From positions 19,840 through 83,839 of the forward strand of contig JAOUGE010000001.1 of the NCBI GenBank assembly GCA_029865605.1: 64,000 nucleotides of DNA, in the 5' to 3' direction. The stretch comes from Candidatus Berkelbacteria bacterium. Lineage in GTDB: Bacteria; Patescibacteriota; UBA1384; DTJR01. The notes under the pieces are model-generated. The model saw only the letters and a program-made list of their open reading frames with translations, made no database searches and was not told the origin of the DNA. Made by a program: the position numbers and the translations under genes. Shown piece after piece: positions 3,211 through 17,201 of this stretch (the first letter of the stretch is position 1; every line of letters starts with the position of its first letter).

Positions 3211-3225
3211 GCGAAAGGAGACAAG

Positions 3226-4023
3226 ATGGCTATCGGTGAATTGGAGAAAAGGATAATTGATGAACTTGGGCTAGGCAGCCTCGGGCCGCAGGAGCAGGAA
3301 GCGGCCTTGAAAATGGTTGATGAACGGCTTGAGAAAAGGTTCGTCGCCAATCTGCTCTTCGACCTGCCAGAGGATAAGAAGCGGGAACTTGAGCAAAAAG
3401 TTGAAGTGATGGAAAATCCCACCCCAGAGAGTGTTTTTGATGCTGCGATTGGCCTTCATCCCAACGCCCAAGGGGTACTTGAAAAGTCAGCTAAAGACAT
3501 AATAGATGAGATGAAAGCTTCGATGAGCAAAACCGCTCCGGCGCCGGAGGCGCCAAAGAACGAAGCTGAAACTTCTGGACAAGAACCTGGTACTTCGTCT
3601 ACCCAGCCCCAGATGTCGCCCACCGCTCAGTCGGGAGAAGGCCAAACCCAGAGCGACGGGGAGAGTTTTCCGCCAACGCCACCAACACCCACGCCGCCTT
3701 CGCCGCCAGCCGAGCCAGAGCCTGCTAAACCAAAGGATGAAACACCGCCGGTTAGTCCGCCAGAAGATGAAGGCCCTAAAGTTGGCACCCAAAGCAGTTT
3801 CGGCGCGGGCGGCTTAGCCGAGACACCGGATTACTATCAACCGGCCAGTCAAGAAATTATGCCACAGAAAGATACCAATTCTTCTGGTGATAAAGCGCCC
3901 TCTGGTGCTGCGCCAGCACCTGAAGCCCCCGAACAGCCAAGCGACGCTGCTCCCACCGCTCCCTTTAATCCTCCTCCTGCCGAAGACCCCAATGCACCCT
4001 CTACCGGAGGAGCAGCCCTCTAG
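3226..4023 (+). CDS. hypothetical acidic proline-rich protein (265 aa)
   Basis: ORF 11 nt after the previous stop with RBS aaaggaga. Structured N-terminal ~100 aa, then a PTPPSPP low-complexity tail. Confidence 0.45.
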   Translation: MAIGELEKRIIDELGLGSLGPQEQEAALKMVDERLEKRFVANLLFDLPEDKKRELEQKVEVMENPTPESVFDAAIGLHPNAQGVLEKSAKDIIDEMKASMSKTAPAPEAPKNEAETSGQEPGTSSTQPQMSPTAQSGEGQTQSDGESFPPTPPTPTPPSPPAEPEPAKPKDETPPVSPPEDEGPKVGTQSSFGAGGLAETPDYYQPASQEIMPQKDTNSSGDKAPSGAAPAPEAPEQPSDAAPTAPFNPPPAEDPNAPSTGGAAL

Positions 4024-4228
4024 ATTTTGCTGGGCGAGAAGCGCTCGGATAGTGCCGAAAGCGTATTTTTGCTATAATTAATTCAGACAGGAGGTGGCGT
4101 ACTGAGAGATTCGGAAGGAGCCAGAATGTTGTTTGGTTTGGCGCGATATGCGTCGAGCTTTAGGGTACAGATAAAGTTAAAAGCTCTGCCTGCCGGCGGG
4201 CAGGGTAAAAAATAAGAGCGAAAAGGGC

Positions 4229-4894
4229 ATGCAATATAAAGTACCACAGAACATAGACCTCGAAGACAAGATTGTCGGGCCGTTTACGATGAAGCAGTTT
4301 ATTTATGTCATCGTCGCCGGCGGGATTATTTACGCTTGGTGGAGTTATTTGAGCAATAATTACGTGGATTTTATGCCTGCTTTTCTGATTTTCGCCGTGC
4401 CGGTTGGTTTCTTGGGCTTTTGCCTGGCTTTAGTAAAGGTAAACGAACGGCCGTTTGAGTTTTTTCTTTTAAATTTATTGCGTTTTATTTTTTCGCCCAA
4501 GCGGCGGGTTTGGCAGGAAGGTTATAAAACGGAAGATGTAATCGTTGTAGACAAAACGGAGGCAGCTCAGCCAAGAGAGACTTCTCGAGACACAAGAAGT
4601 CTCGACGATCTTTCTGTAAGTCTAGAAAAACAGGCAGGAATTTTAAGGCAGCAGGAATTGACTCAAAAACCGGCGGCTGAAAAGCCCGGCTTTCTCGCTG
4701 GCGTCTTCGGTAAAAAGGGCGAGAAGAGCGAATCAACTCTAAATCTCTCGGTCAAGGATGTCAAAGAGGCGGCTCAAAAACAAAGCCAAGCCCAAACGGC
4801 ACCAAAAGTCGAAAAAACGCCGCCAGCAGCAGTTGGCCAGAGTGCTGCCCCCAAGCGAAAGTCAGGTGGCTTATTTGGATTTATGAAAAAATAG
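4229..4894 (+). CDS. PrgI/VirB3-like small membrane protein of Gram-positive-type T4SS, with an extended Lys/Ala-rich C-terminal tail
   Basis: N-terminus MQYKVPQNIDLEDKIVGPFTMKQFIYVIVAGGIIYAWW followed by a second TM helix. This pattern is typical of the PrgI family. It sits immediately upstream of a VirB4-family ATPase. Confidence 0.55.
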   Translation: MQYKVPQNIDLEDKIVGPFTMKQFIYVIVAGGIIYAWWSYLSNNYVDFMPAFLIFAVPVGFLGFCLALVKVNERPFEFFLLNLLRFIFSPKRRVWQEGYKTEDVIVVDKTEAAQPRETSRDTRSLDDLSVSLEKQAGILRQQELTQKPAAEKPGFLAGVFGKKGEKSESTLNLSVKDVKEAAQKQSQAQTAPKVEKTPPAAVGQSAAPKRKSGGLFGFMKK

Positions 4895-4909
4895 ACTTTA
4901 ATTTAAACT

Positions 4910-5641
4910 ATGCCTAAACCTAAAAATCCCACCCAACAGCACCTGCCCTTTTCCGCTATTTATGATGATGTCGTGGTGACAAAGCGCGGTCAGTTTTGTC
5001 AGGTGGTAATGGTTAACTCGGTTAACTTTGGTTTAAAAAGCGAGGAAGAGCAAAATGCAATCATTGCTCAATATCAGGGCTTTTTGAATTCTCTTTCCTT
5101 CTCGGTTGAGATTATTGTTCATTCCAAAAGGCTTGATTTGACCAATTATGTTAAGGACCTTGAGGGCAGAATTGCCCAAGAGCCAAACGAGCTTATCCGT
5201 TATCAAATCCAAGAATATGTTGATTTTATCCAAAAGCTGATCTCGGTTGCCAATATAATGGACAAGAAGTTTTTTATTGTTGTGCCCCATCTTTTGAACC
5301 CTGGCGAGCTCTCGCGCGGCGGGTTTTTCTCGTCTGTTTTCGGCTCATCTCACGTTCATCTCCAAGTTCCTCTCAAAAGATTCAAGGCGGTTAAAGATGC
5401 CTTAGGTGAAAAAACAAATACTGTTGTTTCGTCTTTAGCCTCGATGGGCATTTCCGCTCAAGTCCTTTCTACCAAACAGCTGATAGAACTGTTTTACCGC
5501 ACTTATAATCCGTCTGAGGCGATGCAGGCGAAAATGCAAGGCGAGGTGGAGGCAATCGGCGTTCAGGCGGAAAAACCAAAACAGGAGCTGCAGGCCGCCG
5601 AGCCGAAAACAACCAATGTTTCGATAAAACAAAATAAATAA
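4910..5641 (+). CDS. T4SS-associated protein resembling the N-terminal domain of VirB4/TrbE (possible split VirB4)
   Basis: LPFSAIYDDVVVTKRGQFCQVVMVNSVNFGLKSEEEQNAIIAQYQGFLNSL resembles the CagE/TrbE/VirB4 N-terminal region. Stop at 5639-5641, then 29 nt to the VirB4 ATPase ORF. Confidence 0.4.
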   Translation: MPKPKNPTQQHLPFSAIYDDVVVTKRGQFCQVVMVNSVNFGLKSEEEQNAIIAQYQGFLNSLSFSVEIIVHSKRLDLTNYVKDLEGRIAQEPNELIRYQIQEYVDFIQKLISVANIMDKKFFIVVPHLLNPGELSRGGFFSSVFGSSHVHLQVPLKRFKAVKDALGEKTNTVVSSLASMGISAQVLSTKQLIELFYRTYNPSEAMQAKMQGEVEAIGVQAEKPKQELQAAEPKTTNVSIKQNK

Positions 5642-5670
5642 TTTTTAGTTTTACATTTTAAATTTTAACT

Positions 5671-7788
5671 TTGACCGAAGGGAATATGCCTATTTTCCAA
5701 AACATCCAAAACAGAAAAGTGATCAAGCGCGCCGAGCAGGAGATTGAAAAATCGTCGGCGAATATGTTGGATTTCATCGCCCCGGCCAGCTTTCAGGTTA
5801 CCCCCAATAATCTGCAAATTAACGATCTTTTTGTTAAAACCCTCTTCGTTTATTCTTACCCCTCTTTTCTTAATTCAAACTGGCTTTCCCCAGTCATTAA
5901 CTATGATATTACAATGGATGTTGCTCTTCACATCGCCCCGCTTGAATCAAATCTTTTTCTGGAAAGGATGAGAAAGCAAGCGGGCAGACTCGAGTCGAGC
6001 CGTCAGATTGAACAGGAAAAAGGGTTGGTCAGAAATCCCCAGCTTGATCGGGCCATTGCCGATATTGACCAGCTTCGCGAGGATTTGGTTTCGGGACAAC
6101 AAAGGATATTTAGAGCCGCCCTCTATTTCACCCTTTATGCCAAAACCTTGCAGGAATTAAACGAGACTGCCGACCAGTTGACTTCGATGCTTGGCGGGCT
6201 TTTGGTTTATACCAAACAAAGCATATTTCAGATGGAGCAAGGCTTTCACACTAGTCTGCCTCTAGCTGAGGACGAGCTTTTGATTGCCAAGAACCTGGAC
6301 ACCAACTCGCTATCGACTACCTTTCCTTTCGTCTCGGCCGAGCTGACCTCGAGTAAAGGGGTTTTGTATGGCATCAACAGGCATAATAATTCGTTGATTA
6401 TTTTTGACCGCTTTAATCTCGAGAACGCTAATCAGGTAGTCTTTGCCAAATCCGGCGCCGGCAAGTCCTATGCCGTCAAGCTCGAGGCATTGCGCTCGCT
6501 TATGTTTGGCACCGATGTTTTGGTGGTTGATCCCGAAAACGAATATCAAGCCCTTTGCGAGTCAGTCGGGGGAAGCTTTCTTGACTTTTCTTTGAATTCG
6601 GAGAAGAGAGTTAACCCCTTTGATTTACCCAAAGCGATGGAGGGAGAAGATGGAGCTTCTGTCTTACGCTCGGCCGTAACCGACATCAAGGGTCTTTTGG
6701 CCTTGATGGTTGGAGGCGTTACGCCCGAGGAAGACGCGATTTTAGATAAAGCCGTCTATGATACCTATGCTTTGCGCGATATCACCGAAAATGCCGCTAC
6801 GCATACTAATACGCCGCCGCTTTTGACTGATCTGCAGGGAGTTTTGCAAAATACGACTGGGGCAGAAAGTTTGACAAGAAGACTTGCTAAATATACCGAG
6901 GGGACTTTTGCCGGTCTTTTTAACCAGCCGACTAATTTTGAGCTTGACCGCGGCTTCGTTGTTTTCTCAATCAGAAATCTGGAAGAGGCTTTGAGGCCTT
7001 TGGGGATGTATATGATCTTAAACTATATTTGGTCGCAGATTCGCCACAATATGAGAAAAAGGCTCTTGATTGTTGACGAGGCCTGGATTTTGATGCAGTA
7101 CCCGGATTCGGCTAGATATCTTTATTCATTGGCTAAGAGGGCCCGCAAGTATTTCTTGGGGCTAACCATTATTTCCCAGGATGTTGAGGACTTTTTAAAC
7201 AGCGAGCAGGGCCGGGCGGTTTTGAATAACTCCTCGATGCAGATTCTGCTTAAGCAGTCCCCGACAGCGGTTGAAAAGCTGGCCGAAGTTTTTCATCTGA
7301 CTGAAGGCGAAAAATTTTTGCTCTTGGAATCTGATGTCGGCGAGGGGCTGTTTTTCGCCGGCTCATCGCATGTGGCAATAAAGATTGTTGCTTCTTACGC
7401 CGAAGATCAGATAATTACGACTGACCCGCGTCAACTTTTGGCTCAAAAAGAAGCTAAGGAAAAAGAGGAGGCGATGGAGGGGCCGGAAATAAGCTCTGAC
7501 GCCATACTTGAACAAGCCCCGCCCCGAGCGGTTCCAGCCGCTCCTGCACCGGCGGCCCAGGCGATTGCGCCCCCGAAACCGGTGGCGCCAACTAGGCAAA
7601 CTGCGCCAGCAGCTCCGACCGCACCGCCCGTTCAAACCTCTAAAGCCGCTCCCCCTACCGCGGTCCCGCCGGCGCCCAAAGCCTCACCGGCTCCCCAAGC
7701 TAAGGTTACCGGCGCTCAGAATACTGCCCCTGCTCAAGGCGCAGGGGTAAGGATTCCGGTTCAGAATAAGACCGCCCTGAGAACTTAG
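5671..7788 (+). CDS. VirB4-family conjugative-transfer ATPase (TraE/PrgJ/TcpF-like), 705 aa, with a Pro/Ala-rich C-terminal tail
   Basis: Walker A FAKSGAGKSYAVK, Walker B-like LLIVDEAW, TISQDVEDF and general VirB4 architecture. Confidence 0.8.
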   Translation: MTEGNMPIFQNIQNRKVIKRAEQEIEKSSANMLDFIAPASFQVTPNNLQINDLFVKTLFVYSYPSFLNSNWLSPVINYDITMDVALHIAPLESNLFLERMRKQAGRLESSRQIEQEKGLVRNPQLDRAIADIDQLREDLVSGQQRIFRAALYFTLYAKTLQELNETADQLTSMLGGLLVYTKQSIFQMEQGFHTSLPLAEDELLIAKNLDTNSLSTTFPFVSAELTSSKGVLYGINRHNNSLIIFDRFNLENANQVVFAKSGAGKSYAVKLEALRSLMFGTDVLVVDPENEYQALCESVGGSFLDFSLNSEKRVNPFDLPKAMEGEDGASVLRSAVTDIKGLLALMVGGVTPEEDAILDKAVYDTYALRDITENAATHTNTPPLLTDLQGVLQNTTGAESLTRRLAKYTEGTFAGLFNQPTNFELDRGFVVFSIRNLEEALRPLGMYMILNYIWSQIRHNMRKRLLIVDEAWILMQYPDSARYLYSLAKRARKYFLGLTIISQDVEDFLNSEQGRAVLNNSSMQILLKQSPTAVEKLAEVFHLTEGEKFLLLESDVGEGLFFAGSSHVAIKIVASYAEDQIITTDPRQLLAQKEAKEKEEAMEGPEISSDAILEQAPPRAVPAAPAPAAQAIAPPKPVAPTRQTAPAAPTAPPVQTSKAAPPTAVPPAPKASPAPQAKVTGAQNTAPAQGAGVRIPVQNKTALRT

Positions 7789-7798
7789 ATAAAACCAG

Positions 7799-9280
7799 AT
7801 GGAAGAGACCAAGAAGAATAATGCTCAAGATTTGACTCCGGTTGGCGAGATTAAAACCGGTGCTAAAATTCCTGTTGAATCGAAGCCGCAAGCTCCTTCT
7901 GCAGCGGCTCCGCCGGCGGCAAATGCCACCGGCGCCAAAGCGAGAATCGGCTCTTCTCAGATGCCGCCTGCGCCGGCAAAGGTGACGCCCACGGTTTTAG
8001 GCAGACCAGCTCCCCAAGGCCCGCCTGCTCAAGTCCCACCGCCTCCGCCCGGAGGAAAGGCGGTAATCGGCCGCCCCGGGACCGGGCCGAAGATATTTAA
8101 AATAATTGGTATCGTGGCACTGATTTTAGCCGCTGCCGCTGCCGTTTTCTTTTTCTTCTTTTATCGGGCGGTAGTTGACATTAATCCCACCCCCGCTCCC
8201 GACAAAATCCTTTTGGACGGCAAGGAAATAAAGGCAGGGATATATCGGCTCTGGCCGGGCAAGCACAAGATATCAATAGAAAAGCAAGGCTATGTTTCAT
8301 ATGAGCTTGAGAAAGATTTTTCAATTGCCGAAAAGCAAGAATTGAATTTTAAGCTCGAGGGCGAAAAGGAAACATCTCTGATTGCTTCCGGCGCGAAAAA
8401 AATCAGATCAACCAAGGATGAAAAGATATTTTATTTTCTAAGCTCCGAGGGGAGAATTTCTGCCTTTATCAAAACGGCTCCGGACAAAGCGATTATTGAA
8501 GAGCGCTCCAACGCTTCTTATCAGGGAGTCAAAGAGTATCTCGTGTCGGATAACGGAAACTTCGCCTTGATTTTGGACGCTCAGGCCCTGCGGGTTTTAG
8601 ACTTTACCAGGGTTGATTTTGTTAACCAGGTCGAAGCGGTTTTGCCGCCTCTGGCAACATCTGTCGGTTCAATTTCCTGGAATTCGGGCAGCTCAAGATA
8701 TTTTACTGAAGCAAACTCACGAATTGTTTATGATCTCAAGACAACCAGCGGTTGGGATTTAATTACCGCTGATATACGCCACTCTAAGGCTAATATCGTC
8801 ATGCAGTTTAAGGAGGGTGATTTCAGCTCTCTAAACTTAGATTGGTCGGAAAGCCAGAAAAATATTTTGCTGGTTGGGGGGCGTCTTTGTGTTTTGGACA
8901 TCGTTACTCGCCCCGAATGTTCAAAGCCGTCTGATAAGACCGATTTTATCTGGGGTAAATGGGGCCCCGCGGGTAAGTACGCCATCTTGGTTGATAAAAA
9001 TCAAAACGCTTACGCTCTTAAAGGAGATAAAGTCGAGGACCTGAAAGTCAAAACAGCTGCTAATCTCGCTTTTTGGGAAAGTGAAAGCAAGGTGATTTTG
9101 TTAAGTTCGTCTAAGCCGGTCAGGATCGATTTTGACACGGGTGAGGTGATCAACTATGCTGAAATAAAGGGTACCAAAGGTGCCAATTCTTTTGCGGTAT
9201 TGGACGGCAAGGCTTATTTTACTGATAATGAAGGATTAAAAGAAGCAATCCTGGTTAGTTCGGGAGAAGTTTATCAATAA
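7799..9280 (+). CDS. single-pass membrane protein (Pro-rich N-terminus, TM helix, beta-rich extracytoplasmic domain); possible VirB8/TcpC-like T4SS component
   Basis: TM segment IIGIVALILAAAAAVFFFFFY. Position directly after VirB4 matches PrgL/TcpC placement in Gram-positive T4SS. No diagnostic motif. Confidence 0.35.
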   Translation: MEETKKNNAQDLTPVGEIKTGAKIPVESKPQAPSAAAPPAANATGAKARIGSSQMPPAPAKVTPTVLGRPAPQGPPAQVPPPPPGGKAVIGRPGTGPKIFKIIGIVALILAAAAAVFFFFFYRAVVDINPTPAPDKILLDGKEIKAGIYRLWPGKHKISIEKQGYVSYELEKDFSIAEKQELNFKLEGEKETSLIASGAKKIRSTKDEKIFYFLSSEGRISAFIKTAPDKAIIEERSNASYQGVKEYLVSDNGNFALILDAQALRVLDFTRVDFVNQVEAVLPPLATSVGSISWNSGSSRYFTEANSRIVYDLKTTSGWDLITADIRHSKANIVMQFKEGDFSSLNLDWSESQKNILLVGGRLCVLDIVTRPECSKPSDKTDFIWGKWGPAGKYAILVDKNQNAYALKGDKVEDLKVKTAANLAFWESESKVILLSSSKPVRIDFDTGEVINYAEIKGTKGANSFAVLDGKAYFTDNEGLKEAILVSSGEVYQ

Positions 9281-9297
9281 TAGATCAACGGAGGGGA

Positions 9298-10818
9298 ATG
9301 AAAAAAGCTCTTAGTAGGTTTCTGGGATTATTTCTCATTCTAGGCTTAGCCATAGGTCTAACCGGTTGTTCCGGGTCAAATCAGCAATCCGGCGAAAAAA
9401 TAACTCTTTATTGGTGGCGCAGCCGCGAAGATGCCAACGAGGATGTTTTACAGGAAGTCATCAAGGGCTTTGAGAGCGAAAATAAGACCGTCAAAATAGA
9501 ACTTGTCCTAAAAGATCCGAGAACTTACGAGCAGGAACTGACCGAAGCTTTAGCCGCTCATCAGACAGTTCAGGACGCTCCGGATATTATTTCGATTAAG
9601 GGCGAGGATCTGCCCAAATATGTTCCCCTGCTCACACCAGCGCCGGGCAATCTTTTTGATGCTGAAGTGAGCAAAAGTAAAAAAACCGGCGAGACAACAA
9701 CTCAATATGTTCAAGGGCTGTTTGAGGATGTTGTTATAAAGAGCGTCATTTTCAACGATGACGGCAAGCAGTTGGTTTATGGTTTGCCAATGGCGATTGA
9801 TAATTTAGCGGTCTATAAGAACAAGAAGCTTTTTTCTCAAGCCGTCGAAAGGTTAACTACAGCCAATAAAGCTGAAAAAAATCTTTCAACGACTCAAATC
9901 AAGGAAATCAAAACTTTAATTGAGGGTGATATCGACACTTGGCAGAAGCTGGTTGAAGTGGTGCCGTATTTGAAGGTTGCTGACGGGGTAAATATCAGCC
10001 AGGCGGCGATCGCCCTCGGCACATCTTTAAACGTCGAGCGCTCCTATGACATCTTACAAACAATAATGATGCAAAATGGAACTGCTATGACGAATGAAGG
10101 ATTGGATACGGCAACTTTTAACCTAAGCCAAACCGGCACCGTCGCCACCAAAACACCCGGTGAAGAGGCTTTGAAATTTTATTTAAGATTTTCAAACCCC
10201 AACGATCCTAAGGCTTATACTTGGAATGATAAAATGCCTAATTCTGTCGATGCCTTTATGCAGGGGCAAACAGCAATGATGATTCATTACGCCAGCACTT
10301 ACCGGCATATTATTAACGAAACGCCGACGATTAAGTCCTCGCTTGATGTTGTGCCGATGTTTCAACTGGCCGATCCGAAAGTGCCGACCTCTCAAGATAG
10401 GCTCAAGACCTTTGCCAGGATGTGGGTCGAGGCCGTCCCCTCGGCTAAGGGGGATCAGAAACTTCAAAACGCGGCCTGGAGCTTTGTTCACCATATTACC
10501 AGCAAAACAGGCAGCAGGCCCTACCTTCAAGCAATGAAACTTCCCTCCGCTCTGCGGGATGCCTCATCGACTGCGAAGTTTGACGTCTTTGATGATCAAA
10601 AGAAATTTTCTGATACATGGTATAAGGGCCACCGAGCATTAGAAATTGACAAGCTTTTTATTGGGATGATTGACGAGGCCTACACCGCACGCAAATCCTT
10701 AAAGGATGCTCTTGACGGAGCGGCTGCTCAAACGACGGCGGTTTTGCAAGCCAGTCGGGCTAAGTGGGCAACGGCAGCGCCTTCGGCCGCTGAAGAGGAG
10801 GCGGGAAGTGGACCCTGA
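9298..10818 (+). CDS. lipoprotein of the extracellular solute-binding protein family 1 (ABC-type SBP fold), with no permease or ATPase partner nearby
   Basis: Lipobox LAIGLTGCSG, then ITLYWWRS...KTVKIELVLKDP...APDIISIK typical of SBP_bac_1. Embedded inside the T4SS-like locus. Confidence 0.5.
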   Translation: MKKALSRFLGLFLILGLAIGLTGCSGSNQQSGEKITLYWWRSREDANEDVLQEVIKGFESENKTVKIELVLKDPRTYEQELTEALAAHQTVQDAPDIISIKGEDLPKYVPLLTPAPGNLFDAEVSKSKKTGETTTQYVQGLFEDVVIKSVIFNDDGKQLVYGLPMAIDNLAVYKNKKLFSQAVERLTTANKAEKNLSTTQIKEIKTLIEGDIDTWQKLVEVVPYLKVADGVNISQAAIALGTSLNVERSYDILQTIMMQNGTAMTNEGLDTATFNLSQTGTVATKTPGEEALKFYLRFSNPNDPKAYTWNDKMPNSVDAFMQGQTAMMIHYASTYRHIINETPTIKSSLDVVPMFQLADPKVPTSQDRLKTFARMWVEAVPSAKGDQKLQNAAWSFVHHITSKTGSRPYLQAMKLPSALRDASSTAKFDVFDDQKKFSDTWYKGHRALEIDKLFIGMIDEAYTARKSLKDALDGAAAQTTAVLQASRAKWATAAPSAAEEEAGSGP

Positions 10819-11044
10819 TGTTCAACAATTAATTGGTTTGGTTGCCCGCTGGTACTGGCAGTTGATTTTGCCGGCGGGGACGATTTTAGCCGGAGTTATG
10901 ATTGCCTACGGCGGGATAATTTATTCAACCTCCGCCGGGGAACCAACCAAGGTTGGAAAAGGTAAGGAGTTCATCTTTGGAGCAATTACAGGATTGATCC
11001 TTTTGCTCACAGCGGCCTTAATTATAAGAGCGATTATAACCTGA
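10808..11044 (+). CDS. T4SS pilin-like small membrane protein, paralog 1 (start uncertain; GTG overlapping the SBP stop)
   Basis: Two hydrophobic helices flanking IAYGGIIYSTSAGEPTKVGKGKEFIFGAITGLILL, the motif shared by the five paralogs. Confidence 0.5.
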   Translation: MDPDVQQLIGLVARWYWQLILPAGTILAGVMIAYGGIIYSTSAGEPTKVGKGKEFIFGAITGLILLLTAALIIRAIIT

Positions 11045-11388
11045 TGGAAAACCTAATTAAATTGATTTCTCAAAGAGCTTACGCTCAAGTTGGAGAGGAA
11101 ATCGACCGGCAGTTGAACCCGACGCCCTGGGTAGGGGGGGATGCCGGCGATATGATCTGGGCTCTTTTAAGCAATGTTTTAAGCCGTTTTCCTTATTTTC
11201 TGGGGGGGTTAGCTTTTGTCGCTCTTCTTTACGCCGGCGCGCTTTACATCTTCTCGACGGGAGACCCTCAAAAAATGGAAATGGCCAAAAAAAATATTGT
11301 CTGGGTTATCATCGGAGTTCTGGCGGTAGCAATGATTTATGCCGCTTTAGCGGCAGTCGCCTTTTTGGTTAGACCGAGGATAGGATAA
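11044..11388 (+). CDS. T4SS pilin-like small membrane protein, paralog 2
   Basis: LLYAGALYIFSTGDPQKMEMAKKNIVWVIIGVLAV motif; two TM helices; VirB2/TrbC-like size. Confidence 0.6.
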   Translation: MENLIKLISQRAYAQVGEEIDRQLNPTPWVGGDAGDMIWALLSNVLSRFPYFLGGLAFVALLYAGALYIFSTGDPQKMEMAKKNIVWVIIGVLAVAMIYAALAAVAFLVRPRIG

Positions 11389-11397
11389 AGGGGAAAT

Positions 11398-11790
11398 ATG
11401 TTTGGACTTGAGGGTTTTTCAGGTGCAGTCAACAGCGCGGTGGCCGGCTCTACTTCTGGTGATGATTTACCAGGGAGGTTGTACGGCGCGGTCGCTGATT
11501 GGTTCTCGGGTAATATTTTACCTCTTATCATCGGCATAGGAGTATTTGTAGCAGTTATTTTTGTTTTTTATGGTGCTTTTTTATATTTTACTGCCTACGG
11601 CGACGAGAATCGGGCGATGCTGGCTAAAAAGACGATTACCTATGCTTTTGTCGGGCTTATCATCGTCGGGCTTGCTTTTGCCATCGCCTCTTTCGTTCAA
11701 AGAGCTCTGATAAGAAACGAGGGGGGCGGGATAGAAGTTCCGACCGGTCCGCATACGGAAGATGATATAAGAAAAGAAAAGCTTTTTTAA
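11398..11790 (+). CDS. T4SS pilin-like small membrane protein, paralog 3
   Basis: VFYGAFLYFTAYGDENRAMLAKKTITYAFVGLIIV motif; two TM helices. Confidence 0.6.
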   Translation: MFGLEGFSGAVNSAVAGSTSGDDLPGRLYGAVADWFSGNILPLIIGIGVFVAVIFVFYGAFLYFTAYGDENRAMLAKKTITYAFVGLIIVGLAFAIASFVQRALIRNEGGGIEVPTGPHTEDDIRKEKLF

Positions 11791-11812
11791 CTAATATTAA
11801 TATTCATAACAT

Positions 11813-12190
11813 ATGCCGGAAATTGATTTAAAAGGAGTGATTGACAGGTTCCAGGGTTTAAGCGGGATGACCACACCGATTGTCAACCCGACCCCCCCTC
11901 CTGTTCGTGGAGGGGAAATGGAAAGCATCGGAATTAACTGGCAGAGCGTTATCAATCCGTCCGACTTCTACTACAGGCTGGTTTTGTCTTTCCTTTACGT
12001 TCTGGGGTCGATTACGGTGATTGTTTTGATATATGGCGGAATTCTTTACCTTTCTTCAGGAGGGGATGTTGAGAAAGCCGAGAGGGGAAAAAAGACGATC
12101 ATCGGAGCGATAATTGGTTTGATTGTGATTGCCGCTGCCTATGCTGGCTATAATTTTATGATTGGCGCGCTGACCGGGGGATTAACTTAG
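11813..12190 (+). CDS. T4SS pilin-like small membrane protein, paralog 4
   Basis: LIYGGILYLSSGGDVEKAERGKKTIIGAIIGLIVI motif; two TM helices. Confidence 0.6.
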   Translation: MPEIDLKGVIDRFQGLSGMTTPIVNPTPPPVRGGEMESIGINWQSVINPSDFYYRLVLSFLYVLGSITVIVLIYGGILYLSSGGDVEKAERGKKTIIGAIIGLIVIAAAYAGYNFMIGALTGGLT

Positions 12191-12195
12191 AATTT

Positions 12196-13908
12196 ATGGC
12201 AAATAACAACGAGTCGAACAGCAATAGCGAGTCGAACAGCCCGGAAACAAAACCTGGCGTTGAAACAAGAAGGGGGGAGGGTCTTGTTAAAGAGCTGCCG
12301 ATTTTGGCAACCTCGATTTTGGGGACGGCTCTTATCGCTTTGGGGATCGGCTTTTCCCAGCCCGTGGGCGAGCAGTCAAAGCTTCAATATACCGGCGATC
12401 TCTGGTGTGTCTCAAACTGGGTTGAAGAGAGGCCCTACCGTCAGCTTCCTGACGGCCGGCCGGCTAAAGATCCGAGACTGGTGGGTAAAGAAGACTGGAT
12501 TGTCCGCGAGCAGGTAGCGGCCAAAACCAAAGATGAAGCGGAAGCTAAAGCGCGAGAAAATAGCCACGGCTCTTTCGAACCCTCTGACGCTGACGCCCTG
12601 CGCGGCTATTTGGACCAAAATAATAAAGACGCTTTTACGTCGTATTTTAACACTGGCGCGACGGCTCCCGGGCCATGCATGGGGACCGGGGACACGAGTG
12701 TCCAAACCGGCAAGTGGTTGAGCGACATAATAAGAGAGATTTGCTTTGGCATAACTGGTGTGTCGGGAGAGAGAAAAGACCCTTATAACCCAACTGCTTT
12801 CACGGCCGATCAAATCAACCAATATTTGGCTCAAAAATATCCCAAGAGTCCCCTAGCGGGTCTTGGCGCCGCGTTTGTTGAAGCGGCCCAAAAAAATAAT
12901 GTGAACCCGGGCTTCTTGCTTGGTATGGCCAATGCGGAAACATCACTTGGCTCTGGACCAGCGGTTGGCAGTTATAGTCTTTTTAATATCGGCGATGTTC
13001 GCAACGCCCGCAATTATTCTAGTTTTGAAGAGTCAATATCAGACGGGGCCAAACTTTTGGGTAGCGATTCATATCGGAAATTGCAAGGTGCTCATGAAAT
13101 ACGACTCAAGTGGTGCGGGTATGAAGGGGAGTCCGAAAGTAGCGGCGCTACTATCTCTGACGGCTCGGTTATTCATTACCTTTGTGCTAACGGGAATTCG
13201 AAATGGGAAGATGAAGTCAACATAGTTCTTGATGAGATGATCGCGATGTTCCCTGACTCTGGCGCTGCTACCGATGCAACCCCTGAGCTTTTGCCAAATG
13301 CCCCAGAGTGGTGTCCGACGACACCGCCCGCGGTTGGCCCCTCTTCGGGCGAGGATTACCGGCAACAGATTGCCCAGAAGTTTGCTGAGGAGATGAATAA
13401 GAGAGGTCGCGGCGGCGCAACTTCTGGAGAAGCGCTCGGGTTTTTTGACCGGCTCTTGGCAGCGATGCCCGGTACTTTACCGCCGGCGGCAAATAATATT
13501 GTTAAAGTTGCCCAGGGGGAAATTGGCTATGCCGCCAATGACAATTGCGCCAAGTATAATGCTTATGAAATTAACGGTACGCGTTGCTGGGCCTGGTGCG
13601 CTGCTTTTGTGACTTGGGTTTATAACAAAGCGGGTTTAAACATTGAGAGATCTGGTGGAACTGTTAGGCTAATGGAGCTTTTCCAAAACGGCCACAGTTT
13701 TATTAAAACTGCCGGCGGAACAGGATACAAGCCAATGGCCGGGGACGTTTTCTGGATGAAGGCCAATAATTCCAGCGGCTATCATGTCGGGATCGTAGAG
13801 ACAGTTATTGGCAACACCGTCTTCACAATTGAGGGCAATGTAACCGGTGATGTAGTAGCGAGGAGAAGGCACGGCTTAGGTGAATTTTATGCTTTTGGGA
13901 GGTGGTAA
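12196..13908 (+). CDS. secreted cell-wall hydrolase with C-terminal CHAP domain (VirB1/PrgK/TcpG-like peptidoglycan hydrolase)
   Basis: C-terminal CWAWCAAFVTWVYNKAG ... GDVFWMKANNSSGYHVGIVETV gives the CHAP Cys and His. Central NPGFLLGMANAETSLGSG is glycosidase-like. N-terminal TM anchor. Confidence 0.7.
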   Translation: MANNNESNSNSESNSPETKPGVETRRGEGLVKELPILATSILGTALIALGIGFSQPVGEQSKLQYTGDLWCVSNWVEERPYRQLPDGRPAKDPRLVGKEDWIVREQVAAKTKDEAEAKARENSHGSFEPSDADALRGYLDQNNKDAFTSYFNTGATAPGPCMGTGDTSVQTGKWLSDIIREICFGITGVSGERKDPYNPTAFTADQINQYLAQKYPKSPLAGLGAAFVEAAQKNNVNPGFLLGMANAETSLGSGPAVGSYSLFNIGDVRNARNYSSFEESISDGAKLLGSDSYRKLQGAHEIRLKWCGYEGESESSGATISDGSVIHYLCANGNSKWEDEVNIVLDEMIAMFPDSGAATDATPELLPNAPEWCPTTPPAVGPSSGEDYRQQIAQKFAEEMNKRGRGGATSGEALGFFDRLLAAMPGTLPPAANNIVKVAQGEIGYAANDNCAKYNAYEINGTRCWAWCAAFVTWVYNKAGLNIERSGGTVRLMELFQNGHSFIKTAGGTGYKPMAGDVFWMKANNSSGYHVGIVETVIGNTVFTIEGNVTGDVVARRRHGLGEFYAFGRW

Positions 13909-14957
13909 TGGCAAATATTGGTAAAACCTTGTTTAAATTCAGATATCTGCTGATTATTTTTGCTGTTTTAATCATATTAATTGCGGTTTTGGTTTTAAAA
14001 AATAAGGGCGATCTTTCCCAGAGTACTCTTTCTAATAAAGAAGTTTCTGCACCGGTGGAAAGTTTTGCCAGAAGCAGCCTTCATTATTATTCAAGCAGTG
14101 ACGACCAAAACTTTTTTTACGGCTTTGATTCTGGTAATAAAAAGCTGGTTCAATTTAAAAGAAGCGACTTTAAACAAAATGGCCGTCAAATTTCCTTTGA
14201 GACTGTAGAGCAGGTTTACTCAAACAGCGCCTATGAAAATGTTATTATTAAGGGCTCAAGGCCAAAGGAAGAATTTCCCCGATTCTATTTTTGTGATTTT
14301 GAGCTTGGCAGCTGTCAGTCTTCGGCTTTACCTATCGGAGCGCTTTCTCTCTTACCGGCTAGCAACAAGGCGATAGCCCAGATCATTAATGAGGAAAAAG
14401 CGACCTTTGAACTCGTGGACTTGAAGTCGGAGGAATTTAAAGAACTTGCCTCAACGGATTCTTTTGAGTATAAGTTGGAATTCATTGACGATAAGACCGG
14501 CATGTTTTTTGCTGAGCCGACCGAGCCCGGGATTAATAACCCGATCTCGACCATATCTCTTGAGAACGGTCAAATAAAGACGGTTTTACGCGAGGCCAGC
14601 TCCTATCGGCTTTCGCCGCAAAGAAAATACCTGATTTTTTCCAAAGAAGCGAAAGACAAAACCCTTGTTTATTTATACGATATCGCCAAAAGCAGAGAAA
14701 CAATTCTTGAAACCAACAGTATTCACCAAGCGTTCTTTTCTCAAGATGAGAGCAAAATTTATATCGTCGAAATTTTACCTGATGAACAAAAAGCAAAACT
14801 CCTTTTTTATTCCATGGGGAATGTCTCGGCCGAACCGACACTTATCAAAGAATATGCCTTTGGCAAAGATGACGAACTGACAGATGTGATTTGGCTTCGC
14901 GGTAGCGAATATCTTCTTTTAACTAAAGACGGTCTGGAGATGAGAATCGCTCTTTAA
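13902..14957 (+). CDS. N-terminally anchored hypothetical protein (351 aa)
   Basis: ORF overlaps the previous stop by 7 nt. TM helix LLIIFAVLIILIAVLVL. No recognisable motif. Confidence 0.4.
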   Translation: MVMANIGKTLFKFRYLLIIFAVLIILIAVLVLKNKGDLSQSTLSNKEVSAPVESFARSSLHYYSSSDDQNFFYGFDSGNKKLVQFKRSDFKQNGRQISFETVEQVYSNSAYENVIIKGSRPKEEFPRFYFCDFELGSCQSSALPIGALSLLPASNKAIAQIINEEKATFELVDLKSEEFKELASTDSFEYKLEFIDDKTGMFFAEPTEPGINNPISTISLENGQIKTVLREASSYRLSPQRKYLIFSKEAKDKTLVYLYDIAKSRETILETNSIHQAFFSQDESKIYIVEILPDEQKAKLLFYSMGNVSAEPTLIKEYAFGKDDELTDVIWLRGSEYLLLTKDGLEMRIAL

Positions 14958-15059
14958 CATATGTATTTGACTGGTTTTAAAAATACGGCTATTGTATAGA
15001 CAAGCGAAAAATAGTATTTTAGTAAGTAGTTATTTATATTAATATTAGGGAGGGAGAAA

Positions 15060-15428
15060 ATGAAAGCTCTAGATAAAGTTCTATCGGTAGGCGGAAAAAT
15101 TGCTGGCGTGGTTGCTCTGTCATCAATTTATGGTCCGGTGGCGCATGCGCAAATAACGCAAGGCCCGATTGAAGGGATTAGCCTTTATGGGGGGTCGCTG
15201 GGCGAATTGATCGATATTATTATCCAGGTCGTACTATGGGGCGCTGGGGCTATTGCTTTTGCTTATCTTATTTATGGCGGTATCTCGTATATCACCGCCG
15301 GCGGCGATGCGGAAAAAGCGGGTAAAGGCCGAACGGCAATCCTTAACGCGGTGATTGGTATAATCGTTGTTTCGGCTGCATTAGCTATTTACAAATTTGT
15401 TTTACAGGGCGTAGCCGGCGACCTCTAG
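15060..15428 (+). CDS. T4SS pilin-like small membrane protein, paralog 5
   Basis: LIYGGISYITAGGDAEKAGKGRTAILNAVIGIIVV motif. Strong RBS gggagggagaaaATG and a TTGACT/TATTGT promoter-like upstream region. Confidence 0.6.
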   Translation: MKALDKVLSVGGKIAGVVALSSIYGPVAHAQITQGPIEGISLYGGSLGELIDIIIQVVLWGAGAIAFAYLIYGGISYITAGGDAEKAGKGRTAILNAVIGIIVVSAALAIYKFVLQGVAGDL

Positions 15429-15449
15429 TCCAGTTGTTTTAAGAAGCTG

Positions 15450-16994
15450 TCATTCACTGGTGACTCGCCTTACCTCTTTTTCGGTAGTGATGCCAAGGCG
15501 GACTTTTTCTATTCCGTCTTGAAACATTGTCACCATTCCGTCGGCTCTGGCGGCTTGTTCAAACTCGACAATCGTGCCCTTTTTCTGGATCAACTCCTCG
15601 ATTTTGGGGGTAATTTTCATTGTCTCGATAATGGCAATCCTGCCTTTATAGCCAGTGCCTTTGCAAGTTGAGCACGGGGTTTGGCCCTGAGAGCCAGTCC
15701 CTCTGCAGGTTTTGCAGATCATTCTAACTAGTCTTTGGGCGATGATTAAGTTGATTGAACCGGACAGAAGAAACGGCTTAACTCCTATGTCCAAAAGCCG
15801 CGGGATAGATGAAGGAGCGGAATTGGTGTGGAGAGTCGTCAAAACCAAATGGCCGGTCAAAGAAGCTTGAAGGGCTGTTTCGGCCGTTTCTTTATCTCTG
15901 ATTTCGCCGACCATAATGATATCCGGGTCTTGGCGCAAGGCGTGCTTTAAACCGATGGCAAAGTCATAGCCTTTGCTTGGATTGACTTGGCTTTGATCGA
16001 TTCCCTCGATTCGGTATTCAATTGGATCTTCAAGGGTGATTATTTTGACTTCCGATTTATTTAGCTTTTGCAAAATAGCATATAAAGTAGTCGTTTTTCC
16101 CGAACCGGTCGGGCCAGTGTTGAAGATAGCGCCGTTTGGCTTTGAAATCGCCTCCTCGATCGCTTGCATGGCGTCTTCGCGGAAACCTAGCTTCTCGAGT
16201 GTTATTAAAGCCCCTGAAGGATTTAAAAGCCGGCAAACGATTACCTCGCCCCAAGCTCCGGGGATAAGCGAAACCCTAACATCTATATTTTGGGCGGCGA
16301 TTTGAATTTCAAAGCGGCCGTCTTGGGGGATTTCAGTTACATTGAGCTTCAATTTTGAAAGATATTTGATGCGATTTCTGATTGCTTTGTAGGTTTCCGG
16401 CGGCAGTTTGGCGACATCTTGAAGCATCCCGTCGAGGCGGTAGCGCAGCCTTGCGCCGTCTTCAGCTGGTTCGATATGAATGTCTGAGGCGTCAAGATGA
16501 ACCGCTCCGGCAAAAACAATATCAAGAATTTCTGTTGTTTCGGTTTGGGTAATCTTGTTGCCGATTGATTTGAGGTCCTGTGCTCCGCCAAATTTAGCCT
16601 TGATGTATTCATCGGAGACGATATGTCTCTCAAGCGTTCGGGGCTTCTCCTTGACGAACTCAAGCTGGGCCAGGCCGTATCTCAATGAACTTTCCGAGCA
16701 GAGATAGAGGTGAAATTTGTAATTGGTGGATACGGAGAGCTCCCTCAAAAACGGCACCAGACGAGGGTCTTCCGGCTTTGAAGCCGCTACCTTGACTTGG
16801 TCGTTTAAGCGATAAAAAGGAATAACGCCATGCTCTCTGGCCTGCTCTTTGGGGATGATAGAGAGTACTTCTGGAGTGAAAGGATAGCCGACCAAATTAA
16901 CATAAGGTACGCCGACCTTGGCTGACTTTTCGCGAGTCGCTTTCTCCTCCCCTTCGCGAGAGAATATTTTGAGGGCTTTGTCGATATCGGGCAT
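15450..16994 (-). CDS. GspE/PilB/VirB11-superfamily secretion ATPase (514 aa) with N-terminal GspE_N-like domain and C-terminal tetracysteine motif
   Basis: Walker A GPTGSGKTTTLYA, Walker B DPDIIMVGEIRD, His box TLHTNSA, CKTCRGTG...CSTCKGTG zinc motif. Confidence 0.8.
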   Translation of the reverse strand: MPDIDKALKIFSREGEEKATREKSAKVGVPYVNLVGYPFTPEVLSIIPKEQAREHGVIPFYRLNDQVKVAASKPEDPRLVPFLRELSVSTNYKFHLYLCSESSLRYGLAQLEFVKEKPRTLERHIVSDEYIKAKFGGAQDLKSIGNKITQTETTEILDIVFAGAVHLDASDIHIEPAEDGARLRYRLDGMLQDVAKLPPETYKAIRNRIKYLSKLKLNVTEIPQDGRFEIQIAAQNIDVRVSLIPGAWGEVIVCRLLNPSGALITLEKLGFREDAMQAIEEAISKPNGAIFNTGPTGSGKTTTLYAILQKLNKSEVKIITLEDPIEYRIEGIDQSQVNPSKGYDFAIGLKHALRQDPDIIMVGEIRDKETAETALQASLTGHLVLTTLHTNSAPSSIPRLLDIGVKPFLLSGSINLIIAQRLVRMICKTCRGTGSQGQTPCSTCKGTGYKGRIAIIETMKITPKIEELIQKKGTIVEFEQAARADGMVTMFQDGIEKVRLGITTEKEVRRVTSE

Positions 16995-16998
16995 AGCA

Positions 16999-17024
16999 GT
17001 TAAAAGCTAAAAGTTAAAAGCTTA
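16999..17024. repeat. direct repeat gttaaaagct x2 in the promoter region of the secretion ATPase gene
   Basis: Seen at 16999-17008 and 17014-17023. Confidence 0.5.
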
Positions 17025-17051
17025 TACATTATTATGCAATTTATTTGTATC

Positions 17052-17083
17052 CACTTTACCCTTTTCACTTTACCCTTTTCACT
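17052..17083. repeat. tandem repeat cactttaccctttt x2.3
   Basis: Two perfect 14-nt units plus a partial third, between the ATPase gene start and the high-GC island. Confidence 0.6.
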
Positions 17084-17107
17084 GACTCTTTGCGAGTTTT
17101 GAGGGCT

Positions 17108-17153
17108 AAAAAACAGCAGGGCCCCGATCTCGCGTGGAGGCGAGGGGGCCCTG
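17108..17153 (-). terminator. GC-rich hairpin (cagggcccc...ggggccctg) followed on the minus strand by a T-run; terminator for the minus-strand island ORF
   Basis: About 14-bp imperfect stem. aaaaaa on the plus strand at 17108-17113 is a T-run in minus sense. Confidence 0.45.
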
Positions 17154-17201
17154 GTACGTGGGGACCTCGGGAAGCTCCCGAGGCTTACAGGCGGGGTGCG
17201 A

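Follow-up and report, generated by a model that had tools for sequence, protein, structure and literature searches.

Gene content of the locus

The window analysed here is a stretch of 64 kb from a Candidatus Berkelbacteria MAG, and the proteins of the locus are annotated as Candidatus Berkelbacteria (locus tags OEV37_00140 and 00175). A tight plus-strand operon of 13 genes lies at window positions 4229-15428, in the order PrgI/VirB3, TrsD-like protein, VirB4, beta-propeller protein, substrate-binding (SBP) lipoprotein, pilins and cell-wall hydrolase, with one orphan gene included. Eight of the nine features named in a preliminary description were recovered where it had placed them, among them the PrgI-like protein, the VirB4-family ATPase, the SBP-like lipoprotein, four tandem pilins plus a fifth nearby, the CHAP hydrolase and a convergent GspE/PilB-family ATPase; its VirB8-like label for the gene at 7799-9280 was not upheld.

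The first gene (4229-4894, plus strand) codes for a PrgI/VirB3-like small membrane protein of 221 aa, which passes the PF12666 profile cut-off of 27 bits with a score of 50.7 and has a single strong transmembrane (TM) segment at residues 51-69. It is followed by a gene for a soluble TrsD-like protein of 243 aa (4910-5641, plus strand; NCBIfam TrsD NF041427, E 4e-11), which the preliminary description had overlooked. In the CD1110 VirB4 profile this protein aligns to positions 1-119 (E 6e-9), in the VirB4_plasma profile to positions 100-233, and it carries a precomputed PF26593 TraC-like match; judged from these alignments, it corresponds to a detached VirB4 N-terminal domain. The VirB4 ATPase itself, of MPF_FATA/CD1110 type, has a reading frame open from 5671, and the public gene call starts at 5686 (5686-7788, plus strand, 700 aa per public annotation). 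It matched NCBIfam NF045971, 'VirB4-like conjugal transfer ATPase, CD1110 family', with 374 bits, above the cut-off of 325, the alignment spanning profile positions 172-734 of 752. Its C-terminal domain matched the solved Firmicute structure, Thermoanaerobacter VirB4 (PDB 4AG5), with E 2e-44, and P-loop_TraG was found with E 1.6e-26. The translation shows Walker A (AKSGAGKS) and Walker B (LLIVDE); it may be noted that a motif regex scan reported Walker B only, its stricter G-x4-GK[ST] pattern giving no Walker A.

The gene at 7799-9280 (plus strand) codes for a bitopic membrane protein. In its AlphaFold2 model (mean pLDDT 80.7) a disordered Pro-rich N-terminus is followed by a TM helix (98-121), a PEGA-like sandwich and a seven-blade beta-propeller, residues 124-490 being all-beta. 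The top Foldseek matches in the PDB were all WD40-type propellers and relatives of the protein carry the PEGA annotation PF08308, so a VirB8-like fold was rejected. Only 17 homologues were found, all lineage-restricted. Next comes an orphan carbohydrate-type substrate-binding lipoprotein (9298-10818, plus strand; SBP_bac_8 E 6e-17, SBP_bac_1 E 5e-10) with lipobox LTGC in its translation and weak similarity to maltose/MsmE/GanS binding proteins; neither an ABC permease gene nor an ABC ATPase gene is present nearby. Its stop codon overlaps the start of pilin 1.

Five VirB2-like pilins, all on the plus strand, score above the PF18895 (T4SS_pilin) cut-off of 26.6 bits: pilin 1 (10808-11044, 78 aa, 29.6 bits), pilin 2 (11044-11388, 114 aa, 40.0 bits), pilin 3 (11398-11790, 130 aa, 34.9 bits), pilin 4 (11813-12190, 125 aa, 40.5 bits) and, further downstream, pilin 5 (15060-15428, 122 aa, 32.3 bits). 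Each has two hydrophobic (TM) helices, and their pairwise identity of 29-36% agrees with the earlier view that the paralogues are diversified. We place the start of pilin 1 at the GTG at 10808, instead of at 10706 as given earlier, because of this codon with its Shine-Dalgarno sequence (GAGGAGG at 10796-10802) and the 78-aa public gene call. Pilin 5 has a cleavable-looking signal peptide (...AHA/Q), and its AlphaFold2 model is a helical hairpin (47-78 and 84-119, pLDDT 80-88). A comparison of the pilin fold with solved structures of conjugative pili gave no significant similarity.

Between the fourth and fifth pilins lies a membrane-anchored cell-wall hydrolase (12196-13908, plus strand; TM segment 30-48), a VirB1 analogue with a CHAP domain (37.5 bits against 26) and a glucosaminidase-like domain that is sub-threshold (27.7 bits against 30.2). 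After it comes an orphan membrane-anchored protein of 349 aa (13908-14957, plus strand; TM segment 15-33), which matched only itself among 5.8 billion proteins, and found no match in the 80 related loci listed and no Pfam family.

Convergent on the 3′ end of the operon is a PilB/GspE-type hexameric ATPase (15450-16994, minus strand; T2SSE E 8e-119 plus an MshEN N-domain) with two CxxC pairs as a Zn finger, which matched PDB PilB 5TSG with E 1e-102. As it reached 468 bits with TIGR02538 versus only 44 bits for VirB11, its sequence marks it as a true type IV pilus-type motor and not a VirB11. Two extended VirB6-like polytopic membrane proteins are coded on the minus strand 32 kb from the operon, as had been described. 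VirB6-like 1 (49184-52102, 972 aa) has six TM segments and then a hydrophilic tail of ~550 aa, its match to PF04610 TrbL (E 4.7e-5, 23.7 bits) lying just below the cut-off of 25.9. VirB6-like 2 (53439-56171, 910 aa), with seven TM segments, is its paralogue (25% identity, E 7e-23, across the TM domain).

Conservation and genomic setting

We confirmed 215 related loci, of which 80 are listed, and counts over 80 refer to those listed. The 80 are mostly CPR-labelled, with a few labelled 'bacterium', WS2, Gammaproteobacteria or Methylomirabilis. PrgI is upstream of VirB4 in 67 of them and the TrsD-like protein is a separate gene in 74, the PrgI-TrsD-VirB4 trio being found in 67-80 of the 80. The full 13-gene order is preserved in at least six species-level relatives and in a deeper relative (L083). 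Gene by gene, the beta-propeller protein follows VirB4 in L001-L008 and L083, the SBP-pilin pairing is preserved in L001-L008, L083 and L084, and the hydrolase is syntenic in L001-L008. The PilB gene is linked to VirB4 in 15 of the 80 loci, and also in L083 and L084. Homologues of VirB6-like 1 adjoin PrgI-VirB4 in L011 and L065, and VirB6-like 2 is weakly similar (E 4e-5) to a 977-aa gene immediately upstream of PrgI in the Kazan locus L020. VirB4 is 48-82% identical to CPR MAG homologues, while against 72,556 plasmids its identity was at most 39%, with the best matches in Actinobacteria and Firmicutes. On the basis of these identity levels and the synteny, we assign the locus to the Patescibacteria clade.

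The flanks carry housekeeping genes (rpmH, rnpA, yidC, ddl, ychF and an aminoacyl-tRNA synthetase), the locus adjoining rpmH-rnpA-yidC, with dnaA not adjacent to rpmH. A scan of the plausible ORFs (170 aa or longer) of the 64-kb window gave no match to a relaxase, T4CP or integrase family, in agreement with the earlier claim for VirD4, relaxase and integrase; nor did the 5.8 kb upstream of the window, where a relaxase or VirD4 just outside it had been considered. The absence of a coupling protein holds for the window plus these 5.8 kb only; a VirD4-like gene may lie in another part of the genome, as it does in most Patescibacteria (PMC12102498).

That the locus is a conventional conjugative element (an ICE or integrated plasmid) with its relaxase, coupling protein and oriT beyond the window is highly improbable. 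Its VirB4 does fall in a family named after conjugative transfer (CD1110), the nearest non-CPR VirB4 relatives are plasmid-borne (4,078 of the 5,000 best plasmid matches were typed conjugative), and the source contig continues for ~14 kb upstream and ~40 kb downstream of the region examined. However, besides the lack of relaxase, T4CP and integrase in the 64 kb and the 5.8 kb upstream, att-like repeats are absent around the operon, the locus resembles the remaining window in GC content (44-51%), and a relaxase gene was reported near virB4 in only 15 of 3,035 Patescibacteria genomes (PMC12102498). The operon is also set among housekeeping genes and its order is kept across species at 35-80% protein identity, which argues for vertical inheritance. 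Taken as a whole, the locus is very probably a chromosomal, vertically inherited, relaxase-less and pilin-rich T4SS of Patescibacteria (CPR), derived from monoderm MPF_FATA conjugation machinery.

Comparison with known systems

T4SSs of this type, near-universal in ultra-small CPR/Patescibacteria, were described in McLean 2020, have been found in 2,417 of 3,035 Patescibacteria genomes (Quinonero-Coronel 2025, PMC12102498) and are essential in Southlakia epibionticum (Wang 2023, PMC10633639). PMC12102498 reports the same architecture and reaches the same 'co-opted, not conjugative' conclusion, which is also drawn in PMC10633639 and the FEMS review PMC12857230. The earlier suggestion of a Gram-positive-type T4SS that has been repurposed agrees with PMC12102498 and PMC10633639 and with all our tests; as the type was already published between 2020 and 2025, the locus is a typical example and no discovery. 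With the systems of Southlakia epibionticum ML1 (SEML1_0006-0019) and Nanosynbacter lyticus TM7x it shares PrgI/VirB3, TrsD and VirB4 of MPF_FATA ancestry, a sequence-divergent array of VirB2-like pilins (PF18895), a downstream cell-wall hydrolase, a VirB6-like protein, the lack of relaxase or T4CP in the locus, and a chromosomal site near rnpA/rpmH/yidC. It departs from them, at the lineage level only, in that its VirB6 paralogues are displaced by 32 kb; also VirB4 is separated from the pilins by the PEGA/beta-propeller protein and the orphan SBP lipoprotein, the PilB-type ATPase abuts the operon, and dnaA is not beside rpmH.

The conjugative MPF_FATA systems (CTn2/CD1110, pCF10 Prg/Pcf, pGO1 Trs, the Embleya plasmid) resemble the locus in their VirB4 (same family, scoring above the cut-off of NF045971, with 30-39% identity), upstream PrgI, TrsD-like module, Cys-peptidase cell-wall hydrolase and lack of an outer-membrane core. 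However, they have T4CP and relaxase beside VirB4 and no VirB2-type pilins (PMC12102498), whereas the window has neither T4CP nor relaxase, and five pilins. In the closest plasmid homologue, Embleya sp. NZ_CP108778, a T4CP and a replication-relaxation protein come immediately after VirB4, the position held in the window by the propeller, SBP and pilin genes. TrsD has a gene of its own here, whereas the CD1110 profile has it fused to VirB4 and Embleya has it fused to PrgI.

The DNA import systems ComB of Helicobacter pylori and Ced of archaea consist of a VirB2-like pilin, VirB3, VirB4 and VirB6, and lack VirD4, VirB11 and relaxase. The window resembles them in gene composition, a precedent cited in PMC11665869, and import by any CPR system is putative; specific sequence affinity is absent (CedB reaches a negligible 26 bits, its cut-off being 700), as are the ComB outer-membrane parts B7, B9 and B10. 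Two-helix pilins of VirB2 type are shared with Agrobacterium VirB and the VirB2 arrays of Bartonella and Anaplasma, in the latter two of which tandem divergent paralogues are thought to diversify host-surface interaction (PMC12102498). But those are diderm systems with VirB7, B9, B10, B11 and T4CP, and the pilins in the window are of the CPR type (PF18895).

Proposed mechanism and alternatives

We propose that VirB4, docked on PrgI and TrsD at the VirB6 channel, would pull the two-helix pilins out of the membrane, and that these would polymerise into a conjugative-type tube passing a hole cut by the hydrolase. Together with the lineage-specific surface proteins (the beta-propeller protein, the SBP lipoprotein and the orphan ORF), the tube would touch the host cell that the bacterium relies on and may act as a non-conjugative conduit. 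At the level of sequence, no feature separates import from export. For the cargo we tentatively prefer, at somewhat less than even confidence, uptake of host macromolecules or nucleic acids, since the parts (VirB2, B3, B4 and B6, without VirD4, VirB11 or relaxase) are those of the ComB list and analogous to Ced. The role of Patescibacteria T4SSs has been called 'completely unknown', possibly nucleotide uptake (PMC11665869), and tubular structures, maybe T4SS pili, along with host-RNA feeding are reported for a cultivated relative (bioRxiv 10.64898/2026.06.21.733656).

Rather unlikely, on our weighing, is an exporter that would deliver either protein effectors or, like Bordetella Ptl, Sec-exported subunits to the surface or interior of the host bacterium so as to release nutrients. 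Export is the usual job of non-conjugative T4SSs, most of which export proteins, and the operon codes for several secreted or anchored proteins (7799-9280, 9298-10818 and 13908-14957). Also T4CP-less exporters are known (Ptl, Brucella VirB; PMC12102498), and delivery of effectors or proteins was favoured by McLean 2020 and Wang 2023 (PMC10633639). Yet no recognisable effector or toxin domain is found within or near the operon, there is no coupling protein for recruiting cytoplasmic substrates, and the small proteins formerly proposed as secreted cargo are VirB2-like pilins (PF18895 here; PMC12102498). An organelle for adhesion or contact only, in which the VirB2-type pilus and surface proteins bind the host and nothing is translocated, would suit the five divergent pilins, the beta-propeller ectoprotein, the sugar-type binding lipoprotein and the published reading of pilin arrays as an adaptation to host surfaces (PMC12102498); we consider it improbable, as selection keeps two large channel proteins of VirB6 type and a complete VirB3/VirB4 energising module in genomes that are very small, and adhesion and motility are already supplied by type IV pili in Patescibacteria (PMC11665869, PMC12857230). 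It is similarly doubtful that the PilB-type ATPase is an integral T4SS motor replacing the missing VirB11 and not the assembly ATPase of a type IV pilus that is a neighbour by chance. VirB11 belongs to the same ATPase superfamily as PilB and is required for VirB2 pilus biogenesis in Agrobacterium, which lends the integral-motor reading support. PilB also stays beside the T4SS operon despite rearrangements: the two converge in the window clade and in L083 and L084, and 11 Kazan-like loci have PilB on the strand of VirB4, 1-1.6 kb downstream of it. Moreover, no other type IV pilus genes (PilC, PilM, PilT, PilD) or prepilins accompany it in the 64-kb window, L020, L083, L084 or L085. But its sequence is that of an ordinary PilB in its TIGR02538 and VirB11 scores, MshEN domain and Zn finger, and it points the same way as the rpmH-rnpA-yidC string in the window clade, L083 and L084, so that inheritance of origin-proximal synteny could explain the linkage.

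Two linkages with the T4SS, those of the PilB gene and of the SBP-pilin pair, persist across Berkelbacteria- and Kazan-like lineages and are lesser new leads.

Gene content of the T4SS operon

On inspection of the sequence and its ORFs, 13 plus-strand genes, all in the same orientation, were found to span 4229-15428. The intergenic gaps do not exceed 44 nt and several start and stop codons overlap, the sole exception being 102 nt before the last gene. A promoter and terminator scan of 3900-17800 gave counts close to the shuffled background. The operon opens with a PrgI/VirB3-like gene (4229-4894; PF12666, 50.7 bits against a cut-off of 27), followed by a TrsD-like gene of 243 aa (4910-5641; NCBIfam TrsD NF041427, E 4e-11, and PF26593) and by VirB4 (5686-7788), the three being contiguous with gaps of 15 and 44 nt. 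The PrgI-like protein and the VirB4-family ATPase named in the preliminary description are therefore both present, but the TrsD-like gene between them had been overlooked. VirB4 scores 374 bits with NF045971 ('VirB4-like conjugal transfer ATPase, CD1110 family'), whose cut-off is 325, and in the PDB it matches the C-terminal domain of VirB4 from a Firmicute (4AG5, E 2e-44), with the diderm TrwK reaching only E 4e-7. Its Walker B motif LLIVDE was picked up by a motif scan, and a Walker A-like AKSGAGKS was seen by eye in the translation.

In the CD1110 VirB4 profile of NCBIfam the TrsD-like protein matches positions 1-119 and the 705-aa VirB4 ORF positions 172-734, so that TrsD is the detached N-terminal domain of VirB4. 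Since profile positions 1-119 are absent from the 705-aa VirB4, TrsD supplies the missing domain and not a duplicate of it. A direct match of TrsD to the N-terminus of the 705-aa VirB4 was also tried in a profile-profile test and set aside (P 0.027, not significant). The split between TrsD and VirB4 is kept in 74 of 80 related loci and therefore is no frameshift. It may be added that in CPR (Patescibacteria) the module stands alone as a gene, that in CD1110-type systems it is joined to VirB4, where it forms the N-terminus of the profile, and that in an Embleya plasmid it makes up the C-terminal half of a 'PrgI family protein' of 350 aa (locus L086, NZ_CP108778, 7365-8414). This change of partner lends support to the hypothesis that TrsD may bridge VirB3 and VirB4.

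The next gene (7799-9280) encodes a 493-aa membrane protein that had been taken for a VirB8-like anchor, an assignment we do not retain. It has no VirB8 match in Pfam, and its AlphaFold2 model, built from a 17-sequence alignment (pLDDT 80.7), starts with a disordered Pro-rich N-terminus, crosses the membrane with one TM helix (98-121) and then folds into a PEGA-like sandwich and a seven-blade beta-propeller. The bitopic topology is shared with VirB8, whereas the ectodomain differs in lacking the NTF2-like alpha+beta fold, and the top PDB matches in Foldseek are all propellers. Behind it lies the gene of the previously noted substrate-binding lipoprotein (SBP; 9298-10818), which is of the carbohydrate type (SBP_bac_8, E 6e-17; lipobox LTGC) and has no transporter genes nearby.

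Four small tandem genes for VirB2-like pilins (pilins 1-4, 10808-12190) and a fifth (pilin 5, 15060-15428) agree with the earlier count, as all five products score above the cut-off of PF18895 (T4SS_pilin). Every one of them contains two hydrophobic helices, and the pairwise identity is only 29-36%. Pilin 1 starts with GTG at 10808 behind the Shine-Dalgarno sequence GAGGAGG, a start with which public gene calls concur (78 aa), and this GTG overlaps the stop codon of the SBP gene, which couples the two translationally in the window. The AlphaFold2 model of pilin 5 is a helical hairpin (pLDDT 80-88). A fold search with this model against the PDB returned nothing significant (best E 0.7; the Aeropyrum conjugation pilus 8dfu at E 3.5) and is non-discriminating because a two-helix hairpin is too simple. 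An AT-rich near-palindrome, TAATATTAATATT, lies 8-13 nt 5' of pilin genes 4 and 5 (11792-11805 and 15034-15047) and is essentially absent elsewhere in the window, its 6 strand-counted matches against 2.05 expected being a statistically weak excess.

Between pilins 4 and 5 are the gene of a 570-aa hydrolase (12196-13908), for which the CHAP domain proposed earlier scores above its cut-off and a glucosaminidase domain stays sub-threshold, and an orphan 349-aa membrane protein gene (13908-14957) with no homologue in any search and no Pfam family. The VirB6-like genes had been placed 32 kb away. Two polytopic paralogues are indeed found there (49184-52102 and 53439-56171) with six to seven TM segments and a mutual similarity of E 7e-23, but the TrbL profile comes only near its threshold for one of them (23.7 bits against 25.9) and does not match the other. 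Homologues of the pair adjoin PrgI-VirB4 in three CPR loci (L011, L065 and the Kazan locus L020). Both paralogues are surrounded by a co-oriented minus-strand cluster (47704-56746), of which the ORFs of 504, 293 (acidic, low-complexity, with two C-terminal TM segments), 134 and 192 aa (signal anchor) have no family match.

Relatives, surroundings and published systems

A scan of a genome collection gave 215 loci encoding VirB4 relatives. The best 80 of these show 48-82% identity, and most are labelled CPR (Berkelbacteria, Kazan, Doudnabacteria, 'Saccharibacteria' and others), with a few generic or other labels. The exact protein matches, OEV37_00140 and OEV37_00175, lie on a 123.5-kb contig and are annotated Candidatus Berkelbacteria. 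Nearly all of the 80 loci carry the PrgI-TrsD-VirB4 trio, and at least 6 species-level relatives retain the full gene order, with the propeller protein, SBP, pilins, hydrolase and fifth pilin as well as the convergent PilB. This order is also kept in the deeper relative L083, in which the operon converges on PilB beside yidC-rnpA-rpmH and dnaA-dnaN. In 72,556 plasmids the best VirB4 matches reach only 30-39% identity and all belong to Actinobacteria or Firmicutes. As proxies, these identity levels and the CPR labels agree with a probable place of the window VirB4 in the monophyletic Patescibacteria clade. The closest of them, the Embleya plasmid, carries a coupling protein, a replication-relaxation protein and an NlpC/P60 hydrolase directly after VirB4, a conjugative layout absent from the window. 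The SBP gene lies directly 5' of the pilin array in the window (9298-11044), in L083 (11820-15359) and in the related locus L084 (13512-16868), the pairing being retained in L084 where VirB4 is not adjacent. We put forward as a hypothesis, and as a small lead beyond the published description, that SBP and pilin array form a conserved sub-module. Genes of the 23S_rRNA_IVP or bAvd-type four-helix-bundle family, which includes accessory proteins of diversity-generating retroelements, adjoin PrgI or PilB in L083 (20604-20993) and in another relative, L085 (11577-11933); in the window none was detected.

The operon stands in a chromosomal housekeeping context. The 5.8 kb 5' of the window encode an M16 peptidase, NDK, NUDIX, a glycosyltransferase and unknowns; to the right of PilB, on the minus strand, follow an HD-domain gene, tRNA-Ser, yidC, rnpA and rpmH, and other genes of the window include ddl, ychF, a class II aminoacyl-tRNA synthetase, a DNA glycosylase and a polysaccharide cluster. 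Pfam found no relaxase, VirD4 or integrase among the scanned plausible ORFs of at least 170 aa in the window, neither relaxase nor VirD4 occurs in the 5.8 kb upstream, and an att- and oriT-like search of 1-24000 gave only short chance-level matches. For the window this bears out the absence of relaxase, VirD4, integrase and oriT-like repeat noted before. An ICE or other conjugative element was rejected, there being no relaxase or coupling protein (T4CP) in the window and the upstream stretch together, no integrase in the window and no att repeats flanking the operon. Inventory and context thus agree with the earlier reading of a T4SS repurposed for a non-conjugative role, which is supported with the corrections made here.

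The locus is the known Patescibacteria T4SS, and the interpretation in the preliminary description, though right, was already published, because McLean et al. 2020, Wang et al. 2023 and Quinonero-Coronel et al. 2025 describe the same system. McLean et al. reported VirB4, VirB6, PrgI and an array of small secreted proteins in Saccharibacteria and other CPR. Wang et al. (PMC10633639) found by Tn-seq that the T4SS, including the pilin series, is essential in Southlakia epibionticum, the one species for which a need of the system in host-dependent (epibiotic) growth is shown, and emphasised the absence of coupling and relaxase proteins. Quinonero-Coronel et al. (PMC12102498) found VirB4 in 2,417 of 3,035 Patescibacteria genomes as a clade nested in MPF_FATA, the monoderm class of conjugation machinery, with TrsD and PrgI adjoining it, and described 441 arrays of 2-11 VirB2-like pilins each, averaging 25% identity. 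In the same study VirB8 homologues are few, VirB6 is often divergent or distant, a relaxase is near virB4 in only 15 genomes, and proximity to rnpA, rpmH and dnaA is frequent. In a 2025 review (PMC12857230) it figures as the first T4SS found essential to the cell that carries it and, with its VirB2 pilins, as an exception among the systems of monoderms. It is the only T4SS known to be needed for the growth of its owner and the only one of monoderms with VirB2-type pilins. The window adds a clean Berkelbacteria example and comparative detail, namely the mobility of TrsD, the SBP-pilin sub-module and the persistent PilB linkage; these could guide structural or genetic work and leave the picture of 2020-2025 unchanged.

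The convergent PilB gene and the proposed working of the system

The convergent GspE/PilB-family ATPase gene noted earlier (15450-16994, minus strand, 514 aa) is confirmed by a PilB match in the PDB (E 1e-102), and its stop codon is 21 nt from that of the operon. Its best NCBIfam family is TIGR02538 with 468 bits, under the equivalog cut-off of 675. A VirB11 identity was rejected, as the protein reaches 26-44 bits with VirB11 models, whose cut-offs are 250 or more, and PilB falls outside the VirB11 type, taken as about 330-350 aa with no MshEN or Zn-finger. From its sequence the product is a genuine PilB/GspE-type motor of the type IV pilus (T4P) kind. No PilC platform, PilM/N/O, PilT or prepilin peptidase gene is found in the 64-kb window, nor does a motif scan find a prepilin with a class III signal peptide there, and no PilC, PilM, PilT, PilD or prepilin genes lie within 10 kb of the PilB orthologues in L020 (12673-14313), L083 (10001-11644), L084 (10001-11524) and L085. 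Such partners may be encoded elsewhere in the genome. In the window clade, as in L083 and L084, PilB is convergent with the T4SS operon or the pilin array, and in 11 Kazan-like loci it follows VirB4 on the same strand at a distance of 1-1.6 kb, so that it stays beside T4SS genes despite rearrangement in the Berkelbacteria-like and Kazan-like lineages. The literature searched gives no report of this linkage, and one part of the PMC12102498 supplement lists no T2SSE, SBP or PEGA near virB4.

We hypothesise that the lone PilB may have been recruited as a motor. Inherited synteny near the origin would by itself suffice to explain the linkage, and rpmH-rnpA-yidC lie 1.6 kb past PilB. To go beyond recruitment and regard the T4SS of Berkelbacteria-like and Kazan-like CPR as a hybrid machine, in which a PilB-type motor replaces the missing VirB11 and SBP and the propeller ectoprotein are integral, is in our judgement very doubtful. 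If it were true, an ATPase of the T4P family would power the assembly or the retraction of a VirB2-type pilus, and the pilin-coupled SBP would serve at this pilus either to recognise the host or to capture substrate for import.

As for the working of the T4SS itself, VirB4 would dock on PrgI and TrsD at the VirB6 channel, pull pilins out of the membrane and polymerise them into a conjugative-type tube through a wall gap made by the hydrolase, and this tube would reach the host cell. CPR bacteria comprise possibly a quarter of bacterial diversity, and their T4SS is a prime candidate for how they draw their needs from host cells. The function that we tentatively favour is the uptake of host macromolecules. 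ComB is a DNA-importing system, and the part list of the window T4SS, which lacks VirD4, VirB11 and relaxase, mirrors that of ComB. Nucleotide scavenging has been proposed as a role of the CPR T4SS (PMC11665869), and a 2026 preprint (bioRxiv 10.64898/2026.06.21.733656) describes possible T4SS pili together with feeding on host RNA. That the system would send effectors out of the cell is rather unlikely in our view, and a purely adhesive role is improbable.

Other features of the window

Between PilB and the HD-domain gene lies an island of about 600 bp (17100-17700) with about 60% GC against a background of about 45-50%; neither it nor the 122-aa ORF within it (17202-17570, minus strand) has a Pfam or Rfam match. 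Further on, a 19-nt inverted copy of the 3' end of tRNA-Ser(CGA), 89% complementary (18442-18460 and 18514-18532), is found 53 nt from the tRNA gene and may represent a hairpin or what is left of a tRNA fragment. Unlike in L083 and L084, no divergent dnaA-dnaN follows beyond rpmH (20026-20172, minus strand), and in their place a 1429-aa surface protein with CarboxypepD_reg domains is encoded (20026-24554 for the region). The GC skew has no sign change across the window. Two stretches, 1-4023 and 36000-44000, have 52-58% GC against 42-50% elsewhere and encode Pro/Ala/Glu-rich low-complexity proteins. Examples from the first stretch are 637-3210, of 857 aa and without a family, and 3226-4023, with a weak match to DUF5663; this pair also occurs 5' of the T4SS in the related locus L005.
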